Assembly: GCA_951406725.2 (NCBI GenBank)
Contig: OX597818.1
Span: forward strand, 84,568,001 to 84,632,000
DNA length: 64,000 nt
Direction of reading: 5' to 3'
Source of the DNA: Octopus vulgaris
Lineage: Eukaryota
The notes under the pieces were generated by a model, which did not search any database, was not told where the DNA came from, and worked only from the letters and a program-made list of their open reading frames with translations. Shown piece by piece: positions 5,995-55,235 of the stretch. The translations under genes were made by a program, and so were the position numbers. Positions within the stretch are counted from its first letter, which is position 1, and each line of letters begins with the position of its first letter.

Positions 5995-6042
5995 GTCTCC
6001 GATGAAGGGATATAATAAATATCCTGGAAACAGCTGTAAGAC
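5995..6042 (+). ncRNA. minimal type I hammerhead ribozyme motif (core CCGAUGA, probably decayed)
   Basis: Stem I gtct/agac; ccgatga; stem II gggatat/atatcct; GAAA; palindromic stem III CAGCTG; GUA cleavage triplet. Confidence 0.7.
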
Positions 6043-6511: not shown

Positions 6512-7608
<1,097 letters not shown>

Positions 7609-10865: not shown

Positions 10866-11135
10866 TTGCACAACTGTTGTTTCGACCCATCCTGCTACTG
10901 TCCCTTATGGGTGGGACTCCGTTCAACATCTGTTGCAACCATTTTGCAGTCTGGGTCTCATCAGATACATCCATACATAAAGCTGTGTCTGGCTAAACAT
11001 GACAGCCAAGACTCAGAATATTTGGCGAGACAAAACTGATGAGACCAAAACTACAAAATGGGTGCAACATAATGTTGAACGGCGTCCCACTCATAAAGAA
11101 CAGTAGCAGAATGGGTCGAAACGACACAGCGCTAA
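10866..11135. ncRNA. inverted pair of hammerhead-like motifs with long stem II (10866-10968 minus; 11031-11135 plus)
   Basis: Both about 95-bp arms read CTGATGA-GACC-(about 65 nt)-GGTC-GAAA-C. The minus arm continues caacagttg (stem III). Stem I and the cleavage triplet are decayed. Confidence 0.7.
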
Positions 11136-18240: not shown

Positions 18241-18456
18241 GCCTGATAGACGGTGTGAGAAAAACAACAGAGTAAGAAGTGTGTACGTGTGTGAGAGTGA
18301 CTGGGACTGATAGATAGGATAACTACAGATGTATATCCATGCATATAAGCATGCCTGAATGCATGAATATGTCTGGATGCGTAGAATGAGAAAGATAAAA
18401 CGATATGGGTTCAAAAGAATCAATCAAAATCTAGTATTCATATTCATATACATATA

Positions 18457-18691
18457 CAGGGTGGCCCAAAAGTAGATTTACAGTTATCGCATAGGTACTT
18501 TAAATTTCTTTTAAAACACTTTATTACATTAAAATTTTTATGTTACAAATGAAAAGGAAGCTTGACAAAATTAACTGAATTGGTATAGAATAGTGGTTTC
18601 ATATTTATTTTATAATTAAGATCTAAACTGTTAATATATGAATGCCAAAGAAATAGTTGAATAACTGTAAACCTACTTTTGGGCCACCCTC
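18457..18691. mobile_element. Tc1/mariner-type MITE, about 31-bp TIRs, TA target duplication
   Basis: TA|cagggtggcccaaaagtagatttacagttat ... ataactgtaaacctacttttgggccaccctc|TA. Confidence 0.9.
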
Positions 18692-20124
18692 TATATAAAT
18701 ACACACATGGATTCACACACACATACATACATATATACATTTGTGTGTGTGTGTGTGTATATATATACAGTTAGCACACACAAGCACACACCTATATGCA
18801 TACATACATACATACATTAATATATACATACATACATACATACATACATACATAAATGCATGTGTATATGGGTATATTCATAATTACGTATAGGTTTTGC
18901 TAGAGAATCTTCAAGAGATCTCAGTCGAAAAATATATGATAAGGGACTAATGGCGAGTAAAAATAGGGACTACAGAAAAATAACACGGTGGGGGTGGAGA
19001 TTATTAAAGTTAAACTAGTTGTAAATGGAACTGATGTTATTTTTTGCGTGCATATAAAACTATATATGTGTGTAAGCGTGCCTGCCGATTTTTAGTTTGT
19101 GTGTACTTCTGATCCTTTAGTGTGCGATACACGCACAAAGCTTTCAGACATATAGCAATGCTATTTTATATTTGTGTATGTTTTTGCGTAAATTACATGC
19201 CTCAATATATTTGTATGTGTTTATGTAAGGTGCATACCTCTATATAAATATATGTGTTTATGAGCGTCATTAAGTTAGGTTCGTGTGCTGTGTGTTTATG
19301 ATCATTGAGTGTGCGATATATACAAAAAAATTTCAGGCACACAAAAGTACCATTAAGTTATATTTGCACTTGTGTTTCACAAACGTGTGTGTCTATTGTG
19401 CATATTCATATGTGTCTTCAAGTTACGTTCCTGTTTGTGCCTTTAAGCTGAGTGTTGTATGTATGCGTGTTTGGGTGAATGTATATCTGCAAACTTTGTG
19501 TGTATATCTTGTAAACTTCAAGGATTGCGCGAGTTCGTGTAATGGCACATGTGCGTATATATATACATATATATTTGTGTTTTTGAGCATATCACTAAAT
19601 ATAATTCGTGTATGCGTTCGTGCGAGCGTTTGCATCATTTTTGTGCTTAGAGAAGCCTGTAAATTGTGTTTGTGCAGTTTTTTGTGTACTTGAGGAGTGA
19701 GTTTGTGTCTGTCTGTCTGAGAACGTGTTTCTGAGATGACTGTATAATTGCGTGTGCCAATAAGGTTTATATTTTTGGTGTATGAATCTATAATGTGCTA
19801 TTGTGCGTGCCAGTAATAAGATGTGAGATAACGAGGAGGGCGGTAACTATATATGTATACATACATTTATATAAATATATACATTATGTGTATGTGTGTG
19901 TGTGTGTGTGTGTGTGTATGACTGTCCATTATTGGTGGACGGGTTAAAAGGCAGACATAATCATACGTTTAACTCCTTTGGAAAAAACTGTTACTTTTAT
20001 ATCACACGACATAATCACTCGTTTGGCCTTTAGGAAACAAACAAAAAGGGCCCATTTACTTAGTAAGGTGTGGCAGAGGTTGGAACATCTGATATGACCG
20101 ACGATGACACGTCTGGACATGTAT

Positions 20125-21318: not shown

Positions 21319-23222
<1,904 letters not shown>

Positions 23223-23265
23223 TATATAAACTTTATTAATAAATCTTCAAAGACATCACAAAGAG

Positions 23266-25467: not shown

Positions 25468-25505
25468 TCTTTTACGTTTCGAGCCTACGCTCTTCAACAG
25501 AAAGA
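25468..25505 (-). ncRNA. minimal HHR (CUGUUGA variant) in a PLE pLTR fragment (25370-25575)
   Basis: Minus strand tcttt-CTGTTGA-a-gagc gtag gctc-GAAA-CG-TA-aaaga. Stems I and II are perfect, stem III is the ACGU palindrome, triplet GUA. Confidence 0.8.
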
Positions 25506-26869: not shown

Positions 26870-27857
26870 TGTGTTTGTGTGTGTCTGTGTCTATGTATGC
26901 TTATGATCTTGTTTCCTGGACATCCTTTCTGCGTTCCTTTCATATATTTCATCTCTCTCGGCACCCACGATCCAATCAGCCTCACCCCACCTACTTTCTT
27001 TCCTTCCTTGCCTCTCATCCCCACCACCACCACCTCTTACACTGTTACTTTTACGCTAATACTAATAACTCCCGATCCTTTAGATATATTGCCACTCATC
27101 CACCACCCTCCCATCTGTGCATCTATGACTCACTGTCTTCTGTCTTCTGTCAATTACCCCAATCAAAGTTTGCCATCAGGATTCCCACTTTGCCTTAATT
27201 AGTTTGTATCTTGCTAATTACCATCTGCGCATGCATACACACGCATGCAGTCACTCGCCCGCGCACGCGCAAACGCGAGGACGCACACACATACACACAC
27301 ATACACAGGTATACAAACATACGTTCGTACACACATTCAGACACGTCTTCATGCATTCAAATTTCTACACGCATACATTTATACATAGACAGATGCATAC
27401 GTGCATACACACATACACACACACACAAAACATAGATACAAAGACAAACGCACACACATACATAAATACGTTGACATACATGCGTACGTGCATGCTCCTA
27501 CGATGCGAGTGCAGTCATCATTAACAAGCACTTGTGTGCACAAAGACAAGTGTGTATAGTTATAAGCACCTGCAATAACACATCAACAGGGGATACAAAT
27601 ATACACAGCTGTGCACAGGGACGTACACAATGCAGACACATCCACATACTCGTAAATGGTTAGCAAAACCACGGAATTTCAAATATTATAACGTATACAC
27701 ATTATACTGTTTTCACAGCTATGCTACGCTGAAATTTATATTCTTTTCTGTAGACTATCAAACACATTCGACGCTTCCAAAGTTTGTTTATAAAATACAG
27801 TCGCATTCCAAAACCTAACATTATTTAGCGCTAAAACTGACAGTAATATCTGTCAGC

Positions 27858-27925
27858 AGTCCGTTCAGCTTAAGGGTAGAATACTTCCCCGGCATTTGAC
27901 GGGTACGGGTTCGAATCCTATCCTT
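27858..27925 (+). other. tRNA-like (SINE head) remnant
   Basis: A-box-like cagcttaagggtagaat and B box ggttcgaatcc; no complete cloverleaf. Confidence 0.45.
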
Positions 27926-28136
27926 ATCTGCTGGAAGCCCCCCCCCTCACGTCTTTTATAGGTAAAATGCCTAATATTTCTGCTGTCTTTACGTTCGAAA
28001 TTTCCTTTCTTGTTTGTAATATATATATTAAAGGAAAATGGACAACAAAACCAAGGCAGGACGAATATCCTAGGTCATTTAAAATATTTAATTAGGTTAA
28101 GGATGGATCAAAATATGGAGAAGTAGAAGTAATTAA

Positions 28137-28214
28137 TATCTTACTGCTGTTTCTGGGATATCCCAGATGATGGGTCTACACCTCCGTACACTAGATATTC
28201 TGTCATTAGAGACA
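28137..28214 (-). ncRNA. HHR copy with mutated core (CUAAUGA)
   Basis: Minus strand tgtct-CTAATGA-...ctgggatatccca-GAAA-cagcag-TA-agata. The G5-to-A change is expected to be inactivating. Confidence 0.7.
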
Positions 28215-28442
28215 AGGTGTGCATGCAGGTAAGTTCCAGACAGAGAATTCGCAGTATATATAGCAATAAAACAGTATTCCTTCAATTTGAATGCAACATT
28301 CCAAATACTGCCTCGATTTACCTTGACTTATACTAAAGAAGCTCTACCTTCACGGAAGAAAGGAGTAACTTCCATGCACTCTGTGAACTATATTCTTCTG
28401 TCTTTTATTCTTCCATCTACTGTTTTAATTTTTATTCTTTTA

Positions 28443-28825
28443 CTAGCAGTATCGCCCGGCGTTGCTCAGGTTTGTAAGGGAAATAACTATAAAGCATTTT
28501 TAGAGAGTTATAGCCAAAAAATAGCAAAAAAATGGAACAAAATGATGGTAAATTTTTTTTGAGAGTAAAAAGAGGTGGAGTTGCGTCCCCTAGACAGTTT
28601 GCGGTTTGTGTTTCTGATTCTCGACCCCATGTCGAATTTATCGATTTTTTCAGAACTGGGGGAACTTTTCAAAATTTTCGCTGCGTTAGTTTTGAATTAT
28701 GACATTGGGCTATGTGTGTGTCAAGTTTCATCAGAATCGGTTGAAAGCCGTGGTCAGGGTGAGGGTACAAGCAAACAGACACACAGAAACACGCACAGAC
28801 AAACTGCTGTTTATATAGAGAGAGA
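28443..28825 (-). mobile_element. non-autonomous Helitron
   Basis: Minus strand starts A|TCTCTCTCTATATAAAC and ends with an imperfect hairpin (cctgagcaacgccggg) then CTAG|T; inserted between A and T with no TSD. Confidence 0.8.
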
Positions 28826-28856
28826 TACACTGTGAATTCTCTGTCTGGAACTTTCT

Positions 28857-28930
28857 TGTCTCTGATGATGGAATACCCAGTGTATGGTGATGACGCTTCA
28901 CCTGGATATCCCAGAAACGGCTGTAAGACA
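28857..28930 (+). ncRNA. type I hammerhead ribozyme with canonical core
   Basis: Stem I tgtct/agaca; CTGATGA (28862-28868); extended stem II tggaatacccag...ctggatatccca; GAAA (28914-28917); stem III cggctg; GUA triplet with predicted cut after 28925. Confidence 0.85.
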
Positions 28931-29131
28931 TTAATTACTTCTACTTCTCCATATTTTGATTCACCTTATTCTAATTAAATATTCCAAATGACCTAAGATA
29001 TTCGTCCTGCCTTGGTTTTGTTGTCCATTTTCCTTTAATATATATATGTATATATGTATATGTGTGTATGTGTGTGTGCATGTGTGTGTGCGTTTGTGTG
29101 TATGTGTGCGTGTGTGCGTGTGTGTGTGTGT

Positions 29132-29166
<35 letters not shown>

Positions 29167-29169
<3 letters not shown>

Positions 29170-29496
29170 TAATCAATGAAATCCCAACTTAGTCTGATTT
29201 TAGAGTTTTATTATTTGCAATTTTTGCTAGTTTACAATTTTACAATATTGGAAAACTAGTACTTTCATGTCTTACACGATCATCAGGTTTAAGTAATGAC
29301 AGTCGTGTTCCATAATTGACAGCTGTGATCAATGGCAGTTGTCAGAAGTGGAACACGATTGCCACTATGTAAACCTGATGACTGCGTAACGTACGAAAGT
29401 ACTAGTTAATTTCAAAATTGTAAAATTGCAAAATTGCAAAACTTACGAATAATAAAACGTGAAAACCAGACTAAGTTGGAATTTCATTGATTAATA
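29167..29496. ncRNA. about 330-bp palindrome with two divergent minimal HHRs (29253-29290 minus; 29371-29407 plus)
   Basis: Arms are complementary end to end (tattaatcaatgaaat.ccaacttagtctg and cagactaagttggaatttcattgattaata). Each arm reads aaac-CTGATGA-short stem II-GAAA-GTAC-TA-gtt, with palindromic stem III and CUA triplet. Confidence 0.85.
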
Positions 29497-29535
29497 TATT
29501 GTTCTATACACAATCATACAAACTCGATATATATA

Positions 29536-30293
29536 TCTTCTCTATATATAAAACTGAAATACGTTTGGACCGCTTGGATCGCTTTCAAGGCCACTACATC
29601 CCGTCCGATTGACTCCAAAATTTACAGGGGCAGATAAAATAAGGTGACGATGCTAGGTGTCGTTGCTAGGGCCAAAAACCCACTTTGACAATTCCACTCC
29701 CATTCTTTAATGTATCTGTCTTCCTCACTCACTCACGCTATTTCCTCCCTTCCCAGCACTTTTCCACTCACTCTATTTCCTACCTTCCCATCACTTTCAC
29801 TTCGTCAAACGGCGTTCTTTTATGTATCTGTCTGCATTCATAGAGAGATTTATCATCGCTACCACCACCACACAATCATGACAACAAATATTATGAATCT
29901 CGCCATCGCATTCTATTGTCTGCCTGTCAACGCGCCGATGGAGCAAATACAAACAGAACACACCAACGAGCGTTCGTGTTCTGGTGATAACGTAGGTTTT
30001 TCGTATCTATTACATTTTAACATTTATTTAGAACCCTGCAAATTTTTCGTGCTAAATTTTCATTTTTTACTACTTTATTATTTTTTCTTAAATTGATGCT
30101 TTTATTAAAATTAATTCTAATTGTCTGGGTCAACAGTTCGTTTCCTCGGAGGATATGGAAATTCCTATTAACCGTCAGAGAAATAACTCCAGCAGCTCAC
30201 AACTATTTCAACAAAGACAAGGTTACCTGCTTACCAGTCGAATTCAGCGTCAACGCTCACGTATGAGAGACATTCCAACACACACACACACAC

Positions 30294-32945: not shown

Positions 32946-33167
32946 AATATTAGAAAAAACCCACTTTTTATCAATTGAAAATGAATAATTAAATTACACC
33001 ATCTAGAAAATTACATATAATATACATTATATTATTTTTGTAATTTACTTAATCTTTACTTTTTATTGTTTTTTTAAATTTTAACTTTTCTATTATATGT
33101 AATTTTCTAGATGGTGTAATTTAATTATTCATTTTCAATTGATAAAAGGAGTTTTTTTTCTAATATT
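32946..33167. repeat. AT-rich palindrome with about 78-bp near-identical arms, inside (TA)n
   Basis: aatattagaaaaaacccactttttatcaattgaaaatgaataattaaattacaccatctagaaaattacatataata matches the reverse complement at about 33091-33167. Confidence 0.9.
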
Positions 33168-36231: not shown

Positions 36232-36269
36232 TCTTTAACGTTTCGAGCCTACACTCTTCCACAGAAAGG
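36232..36269 (-). ncRNA. minimal HHR (CUGUGGA variant) in a PLE pLTR fragment (about 36130-36390)
   Basis: Minus strand ccttt-CTGTGGA-a-gagt gtag gctc-GAAA-CG-TT-aaaga; same family as 25468 and 14158. Confidence 0.7.
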
Positions 36270-49049: not shown

Positions 49050-50130
49050 TAAAGATTTCTGGGTACGTAGTACTTTGGTATGCAAACGCAATATACTGTG
49101 AGGTATACTAAATATCTTAATAAGTGAGTACCATGTTCTCTGGTGTCAGCAGTGCTATTACATTATTTTGGTACGGTTATTTCTACAGATATTCTATTAT
49201 TGCTACAACGTTTCTTATCGAAACAAACAATGTGATCGAAGACAAAAGTGGGTAATGAGTGTATATACCATATTTCGTGTATTGTTGCCCCTTCATCAGC
49301 ACACATCTAATTCACTATTGCATCCGAAAACTTTGTTTATATAGCCACCGCATACAGCTATGTTAAGATATTGGCTTAAGCTCTATAGAATATCTATAGA
49401 AATAACCTTAACAAAATAATATAAGAACACTGTTGACGCAATAGAACGTGGTACTGACTTATGAAAACATTTAGTATACCTCATTGTATATTGTGTTTGC
49501 ATAATATGTTTGTGTTTACCTACAAATCATTAATGGTTACATACCAGCCCCAAGAATGTGTCTAATGTGTAAATTGGGATATCTAATAACTTAACACCAT
49601 TTTTTTTTGTAGTTTGTTCCTTCTCGAGCCACGCCTGGCTCATAAGGGCCGGTTTCCCGGTTTCCTTGGTGTATAGGTTCCCCACCTGGACGGGACGCCG
49701 ATGGGTCGCAGGTGCGCTGCAAGATGCAGGAGGAAAGAGTGAGAGAAAGTTGTGGTAAAAGAGTCAGCAGAAGTTCGCCATTACCTTCTGCAGGAGCCGC
49801 ATGGAGCTTAAGTGTTTCGCTCATAAACACACACATCGTCCGGTCTGAGATTCGAACCCGTGATCCCTCGACCGCGTGTCCGCTGCTTTAACCACTAGGC
49901 CATGTGCCTCCAACACCGCTGTATGGGGTGATTGTATAAGCAATGTGAAGCAATAGTGGGTTAGACGAGTGCTGAAGAAAGGCCAACAATCCCAGAGATA
50001 TGGCCATTCGTTACCCACGTTTGTTTTCGATCGCATTGTCTGTTTACATCTGACGTCTCGATAGGAACCGTTGTAGCAAAGATCAGTCCTGGCTCTCTAA
50101 GTTCTATGGAATATCTGTAGGAATAACTTT
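49050..50130. repeat. nested inverted repeats: 49082-49154 with 49428-49500, and 49170-49365 with 49915-50125; the second pair carries HHR-like cores
   Basis: The arms align as reverse complements. Minus arm tg-CTGATGA...GAAA-cgttg-TA-gca; plus arm tg-CTGAAGA...gaac-cgttg-TA-gca. Confidence 0.65.
49599..49911 (-). mobile_element. full-length SINE family D
   Basis: Closely similar to 21546-21862; aacacc flanks both ends (possible TSD). Confidence 0.92.
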
Positions 50131-53084: not shown

Positions 53085-53562
53085 CATTGTTTTGTCTTGG
53101 TATAAAAGATGGGCTACAGCAAATATTCTGCTCTATACCACAGATTTGTTTGTCAGTTGTTTAACCTCAACCAGTTGAGCATGTCCCTTAGTAGCTGACG
53201 ATATGTACATCTCTGATCACGAGCAGAAGTAGTGGGGGAGCATCATAGCCCTGTATTGAGAGGAATTCCTTGGGGTTTGAATAATTCACCTTTGGAAACA
53301 TGGGTGTTTCGTTCAACATCCTTAAACAATCCTTATACAGGGACCCTTTGAGCGGGATAGGTTACTCGACCAGAAGAAAATTCTAACTGAGCCCCACCTG
53401 CAAGGTCATGTGCTGTTTATCTTGATATGAGATCACCATGTCACACACATGCGGTTGTGATGCATGTACCTGGTGTATCCTTATCAGACGGGTAGTCATG
53501 ATGGGTATACTGGGCTTCGTATATTTACCCCATGTCACTTTGATGGCATGCACTGCTCTCTC
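53085..53562 (+). mobile_element. unclassified interspersed repeat ending in (AAT)n, probably a non-LTR 3' end
   Basis: A second partial copy at about 58400-58560 shares tataaaagatgggctacagcaaatattctgctc.ataccacagatttg...ccagttgagcatgtc. Confidence 0.65.
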
Positions 53563-53584
53563 AATAATAATAATAATAATAATG

Positions 53585-53683
<99 letters not shown>

Positions 53684-55235
53684 GATGTTGATACAGTCAT
53701 AAGAGAGCTTGAGCAAGAACAAACATACAAATATTTAAGGATAAATGAAGGCTCTGGTATTCAGCATGCAAGCATGAAAGAGAAGATCAGGAAGGAATGT
53801 TATAGGATAGTTCGTACAGTCCTGAAATCTGAACTAAATGCACGTAACAAGGTGTTAGCTATAAATTCCTTAGCAGTTCCAGTTGTTACTTATAGCTACA
53901 ATGTGTTGAACTGGAATATGAGTGAAGTAAAGAATATAGATAGGAAAATACGCAAGCTGCTGAGTTGTAATAGGATGCACCACCCAAAGGCAGACGTAGA
54001 TCACCTTTACCTCCCCAGAGCCCAAGGAGGTCGAGGCCTGATCCAATTTGAACTAGCTTACAAAACAACCACAATTGGACTGGCCAAATATCTTGAAATA
54101 ACGAATGACTGGATGCTAAAGCTCGTGGAAAATCACGAGAGACGAAAGAAGCTTCATTCTATCATAAAGGAAAGCAAAATATTTGCTATTGATCTCGTGC
54201 AGGATACTCAAAATGAACAACCCGAGGGAAGTACGGCAACTATTGTTGCAAAGAAGGTGAAAATAATGGCAACGAAAAAAGCGCACGAGCAATTGGCTGA
54301 TAGGTGGGAGGAGAAACCTCTGCACGGCAAATATGTGGCCCGCAGCAAACAAGCTGATGTTGACCAGAAGCAAACCCATCAGTGGCTACGGAGCTCAGGG
54401 TTAAAAGCAGAGAGCGAAGGTTTTCATCCTGGCTGCTCAAGATCAAAGCCTATTAACCCGGAACTACCAGGCCAATGTGATAAAAAATGGAGCAGACCCA
54501 AAATGCCAATTCTGCAACGACATGATTGAAACAGTGGACCGCCTAATCTCTGGATGTAAAGTATTAGCACCAGTGGAGTATAAATTAAAACATGACAGAG
54601 TTGGCCAATATCTATTCTGGCTAATAAGTCGGCATTACAATATCAAAACTGCCGACAAGTGGTATAATCACCACCCTGAAGCTGTAACTGAAGGAGAAAA
54701 TGTAACGATTCTGTGGGACTTTCCAGTACATACAGAACGAACCATCAAAGCCAATAAACCAGATATTGTTGTGAAAGACCAAAACAATAAAGTTTGCTTA
54801 TTGATCGACATGAGCATCCCCTGTGATCATAATAGCTCGGCGAAAGAGTTTGACAAGCTCAGAAAATATAAAGACCTGCTCATTAAAATTGAGAAAATGT
54901 GGCATCTCAAGGTGGTTACAATACCAGTGATCGTAGGAGCACTAGGAATGATCAAGGAGGGAACCGAAAATTATACGAGAATGATCCCTGGCTTACCATC
55001 CCTGCAAGAAGTACAAAAGATTGTCTTAACTGGTATATCACACGTATTGAGAAGAGCATTGTCGATGTGAGAACTATTACTACCTATGTATTTTAATTTA
55101 ACTTTTTTAAAAAATGAACGAACTAGTGAGTTTAGTTTAATGGCCTACCAATGTATACTATGAGTTTCTTTGCCCTAGAAGTCGGGAAGACACTCTGCAA
55201 GAAATGGAAGCAAATTTGAAAGAAGAAAAAAAAAG
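53684..55235 (+). mobile_element. 5'-truncated Dong/R4-clade LINE (RT thumb, CCHC finger, restriction-like endonuclease) inserted in (TAA)n
   Basis: TYKYLRI; SELNARNKVLAINSLAVPVVTYS; HPKADVDHLYLPRAQGGRGL; WEEKPLHGKY; frameshift at about 54421 before ILAAQDQSL; CQFCNDMIETVDRLISGC; ILWDFPVHTERTIKANKPDIVV...LIDMSIP. Stop at 55070, then 3' UTR. AAT repeats flank both ends. Confidence 0.95.

Follow-up and report, generated by a model that had tools for sequence, protein, structure and literature searches.

A cassette of about 1 kb in the genome of Octopus vulgaris, made of two inverted arms that each carry an outward-facing hammerhead ribozyme motif, raises the question of whether such a palindrome is a mobile unit in its own right or the product of another element's insertion. 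It occupies positions 28019-29047 of the window (the whole 64-kb stretch of contig OX597818.1 that was analyzed), which is microsatellite-rich animal DNA of ~30-47% GC with many transposon remnants. The best-supported answer is that the locus behaves as the stump of a Penelope-like element (PLE) insertion, and an ordinary dead one: we assign a probability of roughly 0.7 to a 5′-truncated PLE insertion whose 3′ end is present once in direct and once in inverted orientation and which later received a Helitron-like insert.

The two arms lie with their tails outward and form an inverted repeat in which 204 of 230 aligned columns are identical, plus 26 gap columns; 17 of the 26 mismatches in the local alignment of both arms are transitions. 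The left arm (28029-28277, minus strand, 249 nt) is an inverted copy of the element's pLTR-like 3′ end and contains a type I hammerhead motif at 28137-28214 (minus strand). The right arm is the direct copy of that 3′ end and is broken into an inner piece of 25 nt (28418-28442, plus strand) and a remainder (28826-29037, plus strand) that holds a second type I motif at 28857-28930 (plus strand); the two pieces total 237 nt. Both arms terminate at the same base, with neither a 30-40 bp tail at one end nor an adjacent tandem copy. The 10-mer ATATATATAT adjoins both cassette ends (28019-28028 and 29038-29047) and continues on the right into a TA/TG microsatellite; the target is a TA repeat context with a 10-bp flanking repeat. 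This repeat is likely a target-site duplication, although, since the 10-mer is self-complementary, a duplication is indistinguishable from a terminal inverted repeat, and an unoccupied version of the site was not observed. The first-pass annotation had described a 1-kb inverted-repeat cassette with an outward-facing hammerhead per arm and ~230-bp arms ending in TA repeats, and the arm alignment, the motif in each arm, and the AT 10-mer abutting each arm bear this out.

The right arm is split by a 383-bp insert (28443-28825, minus strand), a very abundant repeat that has a 5′ TC, a 3′ CTAG, and a 3′ hairpin, sits between A and T, and lacks a target duplication; it thereby displays every feature of a non-autonomous Helitron (5′ TC, 3′ CTRR, 3′ hairpin, A|T site, and no duplication). 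Because 25 nt of arm lie to its left, the insert falls inside the right arm, close to its inner end, which leaves a true spacer of 140 bp at 28278-28417 (plus strand). Thus, the Helitron that had been placed in the spacer is present, but it interrupts the right arm. The spacer is a low-copy family sequence, relatives of which join its right end to the right arm, and it is likely the upstream sequence of the direct copy; it shows no significant similarity either to the arms or to itself. An imperfect small hairpin (28282-28310) occupies its left end beside the junction, where the summed depth exceeds that of the rest of the spacer, and this hairpin is not significant against shuffles.

Relatives of the cassette were examined through public sequencing runs aligned to 27700-29047, rather than by a whole-genome census. 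The family boundary at 28441-28442 is sharp in the public contigs (113-130 contigs per row), and three joints among the 15 of 68 that were listed pass directly from the spacer into the right arm and lack the Helitron. The insert is therefore secondary, and the family extends upstream of the arm into the right end of the spacer. A 313-nt piece from run X7, which bears a different species label, extends into the Helitron with 10 differences; the insertion is therefore common to both this run and run X1, in which the locus itself is represented by a 350-nt contig with 0 differences (depth, 70.4). In raw-read runs X22 and X23, essentially all of the 73 and 31 reads, respectively, fall on the Helitron-like insert, which renders these runs uninformative for the arms and spacer. 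The marks of the insert resemble those given for Hel-2-type elements in the consulted portion of PMC4344730 (5′ TC, 3′ CTAG, 3′ stem-loop, A/T site, no duplication), and like non-autonomous Helitrons of this type it has these termini, a stem-loop, an A/T site, and a TG-rich simple repeat near its 5′ end. Unlike typed Hel-2 Helitrons, it is assigned by end structure and not by family sequence, and it is a passenger here.

The right hammerhead motif combines a 5-bp stem I, the core CTGATGA at 28862, a 45-nt stem II hairpin, GAAA at 28914, and a near-palindromic 8-nt stem III (28917-28924), with a predicted cut after 28925; all elements of the type I core (C3-A9, G12-A14, A15.1-U16.1, and H17) are present with stems I-III. 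The left motif, on the minus strand, has the same layout, with the core CTAATGA at 28209, such that the required G5 is replaced (G5A, at 28207), and with a stem III palindrome broken at 28145. From its letters, the left hammerhead is likely dead, as G5A and the broken palindrome are both minority states in the family. These inspections agree with the canonical core and 5-bp stem I previously noted on the right and with G5A on the left. The summary “one intact, one mutated” holds only in part: the left copy carries G5A and the right core is intact, but the right copy has a mismatched basal stem II helix, a letter at 28919 that deviates from the family majority, and a predicted monomer fold that is not a hammerhead. 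As had been reported, the two ribozymes are equidistant from the element ends (predicted cut sites 112 and 113 nt in); they are outward-facing and equidistant because both arms represent the same 3′ end. A type I hammerhead with a palindromic stem III near the 3′ end, as expected of a PLE, is what the locus displays.

A strict hammerhead descriptor matched the window only at 28862 and yielded 0 matches in 300 dinucleotide-shuffled windows, and a loose descriptor gave 2 matches in the window versus a mean of 0.5 over 40 shuffles. Minimal PLE hammerheads were likewise detected by custom descriptors in PMC4209133. Rfam returned 12 matches on 27900-29600, with no hammerhead among them; across the whole 64-kb window, the best 150 of 396 matches are nearly all microsatellite matches to miRNA models. 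An Rfam fluoride riboswitch match over the right arm was dismissed as weak (21.5 bits, against a gathering threshold of 34).

Could these ribozymes act where they now stand? As a single molecule, the right motif is predicted to adopt a best fold of -19.7 kcal/mol that is not a hammerhead, compared with -14.9 kcal/mol when constrained to the hammerhead. Two right-motif molecules, unconstrained, are predicted to pair through an 8-bp stem III between them, giving a double hammerhead (-42.7 versus 2 × -18.9 kcal/mol), and stem III of this copy is predicted to be stable only between two molecules. Dimeric hammerheads with an intermolecular stem III are known for PLEs (PMC4209133), and PLE hammerhead dimers are also treated in part of a review (PMC6765202). 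Each strand of the locus has one sense motif. In read-through RNA, 66 of 75 hammerhead nucleotides are predicted to pair with the opposite arm; in centre-out transcripts, folded as single molecules, the predicted stem I probability is 0.00, and unit-length RNA is predicted to be a long hairpin with a stem I probability of ~1e-36. The proposal that centre-out or read-through RNA on either strand would meet a ribozyme thus fares poorly: the motif would be masked (66 of 75 nt) and the minus copy has G5A, so that, by these folding models, the functional case for a ribozyme met by transcription either way is weak. The RNA-type public runs contain 0.23-0.24 of the region's words or less.

The letters of the family indicate what the arms once were. 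At 28207, the family majority restores the left G5 (T>C in 26 contigs; depth, 2604 of 3365 in X1), and at 28145, 74 contigs have T>A; together, the majority letters at 28145 and 28919 give a perfect stem III palindrome. Because the majority restores both G5 and stem III, the two arms are decayed forms of a single motif. They also carry common letters that depart from the family majority (28995/28071 and 29001/28065), as expected if one template made both.

The joints indicate how the arms are put together elsewhere. The listing covers 15 of the 68 joints and, for the letters between joined sides, 12 of the 24 rows. Among the 15 of 68 joints listed, six connect left to right arm on the same strand in run X1, at six different positions: 28057-28863, 28174-28903, 28205-28907, 28227-28954, 28249-28909, and 28276-28828. 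The left arms in these six listed joints measure 29, 146, 177, 199, 221, and 248 nt, and each joint comes from one X1 contig with a depth of 39-70, about that of a single locus. Three of the six have 12-31 intervening letters, which read by eye as arm sequence, and the other three had no between-letters listed; four of the six have a listed side, which in three of these is <30 letters long and was flagged as unreliable. One listed joint folds back within stem II and so does without the first half of the core; in another, 28276-28828, seen in both X1 and X7, the left arm has its inner end where that of the studied copy does. In joint 28227-28954 (X1), a single case, the shorter arm begins within ~2 nt of the predicted cut site, as judged by eye. 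Summed depth in X1 is greatest in the outer arms, with peaks of 22,523 and 31,770, falls to 2,285 in the inner arm and to 385-2,016 in the spacer, and reaches 0.9-4.7 million on the Helitron, with 21-78 in the flank bins at 27835-27969; summed contig depth is not copy number, and the outer-arm bins are themselves uneven (865 to 31,770). The fall from the outer arms toward the centre resembles a gradient of 5′ truncation, although the left spacer end (2,016) is deeper than the right (385), which is not what simple 5′ truncation predicts.

The proposed link to PLEs is drawn from the type of ribozyme, its position, and the target, and an adjacent, inverted, 5′-truncated copy that varies between insertions, as seen among the 15 of 68 joints listed, is a PLE trait. 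According to the sections of PMC11167929 that we consulted, the Anolis PLE protein cleaves AT-rich DNA in vitro and extends each of the two strands from one and the same internal position on the RNA, 111-118 nt into the ORF; the ribozyme cut is at +26. If this two-strand copying may be carried over to the octopus locus, a PLE reverse transcriptase-endonuclease would have cleaved the TA repeat and used the same 3′ region of the RNA as the template for copying at either target end, beginning ~112 nt beyond the ribozyme. Copying would have extended for ~380 nt at one end and ~250 nt at the other, early stops creating a new junction at each insertion, and the two copies would have been joined in head-to-head orientation, with a 10-bp duplication left behind. 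The mirror arm was probably made during the same insertion, and the Helitron-like insert probably arrived later. The parent ribozymes would act as tandem dimers; at this locus, they would be left without a same-strand partner and would be decaying. Copying at two ends would explain the two arms and the spacer as well as the TA target, the 10-bp repeat, and the joints that vary, and the palindrome would need no function.

Other explanations differ in what is copied and by what. The fold-back could be renewed at each insertion from a template that is not a protein-coding PLE transcript but a short, non-coding, PLE-dependent RNA, akin to a retrozyme monomer of ~400 nt. We regard this as unlikely, even though the tested spacer frame has no protein match, non-autonomous PLE derivatives are known (Chlamys MRC1, in the consulted part of PMC8557442, and animal retrozymes), and pLTRs alone appear sufficient in cis in the portion of PMC3846280 at hand. 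The locus has no tandem array, the 140-bp non-coding spacer may simply be 3′ UTR, and the Pfam silence counts for little because Pfam likewise gave nothing for the PLE-like frames at 22.3-23.2 kb. A different proposal, close to that of the first-pass annotation, is that a fixed arm-spacer-arm palindrome, or at least a subfamily of this form, is itself transcribed and then mobilized through retrotransposition by a partner PLE. That the spacer is repeated (listed variants occur in 5-9 X1 contigs), that depth is similar across the left junction (2,285 versus 2,016), and that the left arm of one other contig ends at 28276 would all suit such a unit; set against this, five of the six arm joints listed (among 15 of 68) lie elsewhere, and the uneven depth speaks against a fixed palindrome, which should give a flat one. 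Its RNA is also predicted to be a long hairpin (with the negligible stem I probability given above), and, with one sense ribozyme per strand, self-cleavage could not free the unit. We therefore consider it improbable. Such a subfamily, for which we hold out similarly little expectation, would amount to a retro-MITE in which each strand has one hammerhead, and would differ from the retrozymes found in our literature search; that search, with subscription journals mostly outside its coverage, turned up no report of a fixed palindromic two-hammerhead unit.

Least probable, and to our minds very much so, is that a DNA transposase with a TA target mobilized the cassette as a MITE, the hammerheads being passengers. 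The long inverted repeats at the termini and their TA surroundings speak for this, but the listed junctions vary (15 of 68 joints), depth is uneven across the unit, the family majority retains the hammerhead letters, and the flanking repeat is 10 bp. Among the 15 of 68 joints listed, the copies do not all share one internal structure and both termini, as those of a MITE or a fixed unit would. Of the earlier proposal of a non-autonomous, palindromic, PLE-dependent element, then, the putative PLE link is retained, and the distinct propagating palindrome is not supported, given the varying listed joints and uneven depth.

A Pfam scan of one spacer frame and one arm frame gave no match, and no reverse transcriptase or GIY-YIG domain could be tied to the arms. 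A 105-codon frame across the spacer and right arm, with the insert omitted, attains a length reached in 7 of 500 shuffles; it was rejected as coding on account of frame-breaking indels in the left arm and the family, and its two halves had no Pfam match. Separately, broken, PLE-like reading frames occur on the minus strand at 22259-23246 (Atlas look-alikes, 0.94; GIY-YIG in 33% of one cluster), and by their motifs they look like the thumb of a PLE reverse transcriptase and a GIY-YIG endonuclease. A Pfam scan of these frames (22.3-23.2 kb) was empty. This remnant gains no support as the partner, as the arms do not match it, and the suggested search for a partner PLE with the same arm sequence found, within the window, no PLE-like remnant that the arms match. 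A non-LTR retrotransposon ORF remnant that matches zf-RVT weakly (E 0.0079) lies at 53426-55070. When metagenome and viral contigs were scanned for the pattern, 0 loci were returned.

The layout recurs in the window, as claimed, with further inverted hammerhead pairs at 29169-29494 and 10872-11128. The former is a near-perfect palindrome unrelated to the cassette (127 of 157 aligned bases identical, a ~10-nt centre, and TA context), with an exact, outward-facing CTGATGA core in each arm (29286 minus, 29375 plus), and is likely another fold-back PLE stump. The pair at 10872-11128 has a stem II of 73-74 nt and stem I flanks that differ between copies, and homology in the right copy ends just past GAAAC. 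A single hammerhead at 5999-6038, ~65 nt before a TA repeat, has stems I and III like those of the cassette family, a short stem II, and a changed core position 4; no inverted partner was found for it. Ends of another repeat lie, single-armed, beside TA repeats at 25473-25500, at 36237-36264, and at ~21500 (minus strand), the first two with a minimal hammerhead-like motif that has one core mismatch. Short inverted-repeat elements at 7457-7608, 32951-33162, 49079-49503, and 18452-18696, without an evident outward hammerhead pair, are probably MITEs.

As one more case of a described insertion pattern, the cassette carries little weight by itself. The function of PLE hammerheads is called unclear in the consulted part of PMC8557442, and, in that of PMC11167929, no RNA was found to end at the cut site in Anolis. 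With three in 64 kb, this genome seems to contain many such fold-backs, each marking where copying stopped. As fold-backs record such stops, and as one joint (28227-28954) is near the cut, a genome-wide count of junctions relative to the cut site could test whether cleaved RNA serves as a template in vivo.

The locus can be compared with several known systems. Like the animal non-LTR retrozymes treated in the accessible part of a preprint (bioRxiv 10.64898/2026.07.22.740005; Li, Clavereau and Pollet 2026), it is non-coding, has a type I hammerhead, and probably derives from PLE terminal repeats; unlike these, which are arranged head to tail with at least two ribozymes on one strand, it has one ribozyme per strand and no head-to-tail repeats, and its distinctness from direct-repeat retrozymes, as first proposed, is upheld. 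With metazoan PLE hammerheads, it shares type I architecture, a 5-bp stem I, a long stem II, and a palindromic stem III suiting dimers, and it differs from those described in that stem II is an irregular hairpin of 45-49 nt (versus 7-8 bp) and that neither copy shows an evident G10.1-C11.1 pair with a bulged base. Opposite-strand pairs are also familiar: dual minimal hammerheads ~100-700 bp apart were reported in Schistosoma mansoni in 2014 (PMC4209133), and the present pair is comparable. Inverted 5′-truncated copies beside PLE insertions, with TA targets, are described in the consulted sections of PMC8557442 (Craig et al. 2021), where a 30-40 bp tail and a partial tandem are optional PLE features; inverted pLTRs are also described in those of PMC8969392 and, with 8-10 bp duplications, of PMC3846280 (Arkhipova et al. 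2013). Unlike the EN+ PLE units in these sources, the locus is without an ORF and a 30-40 bp tail, and one of its arms is interrupted by a Helitron; like their inverted-pLTR units, it pairs a 5′-truncated with an inverted copy, tails out, with pLTR-sized arms, a microsatellite target, and a likely ~10-bp duplication. PLEs and Helitrons are both expanded in Octopus vulgaris, according to the part of PMC13282606 consulted.
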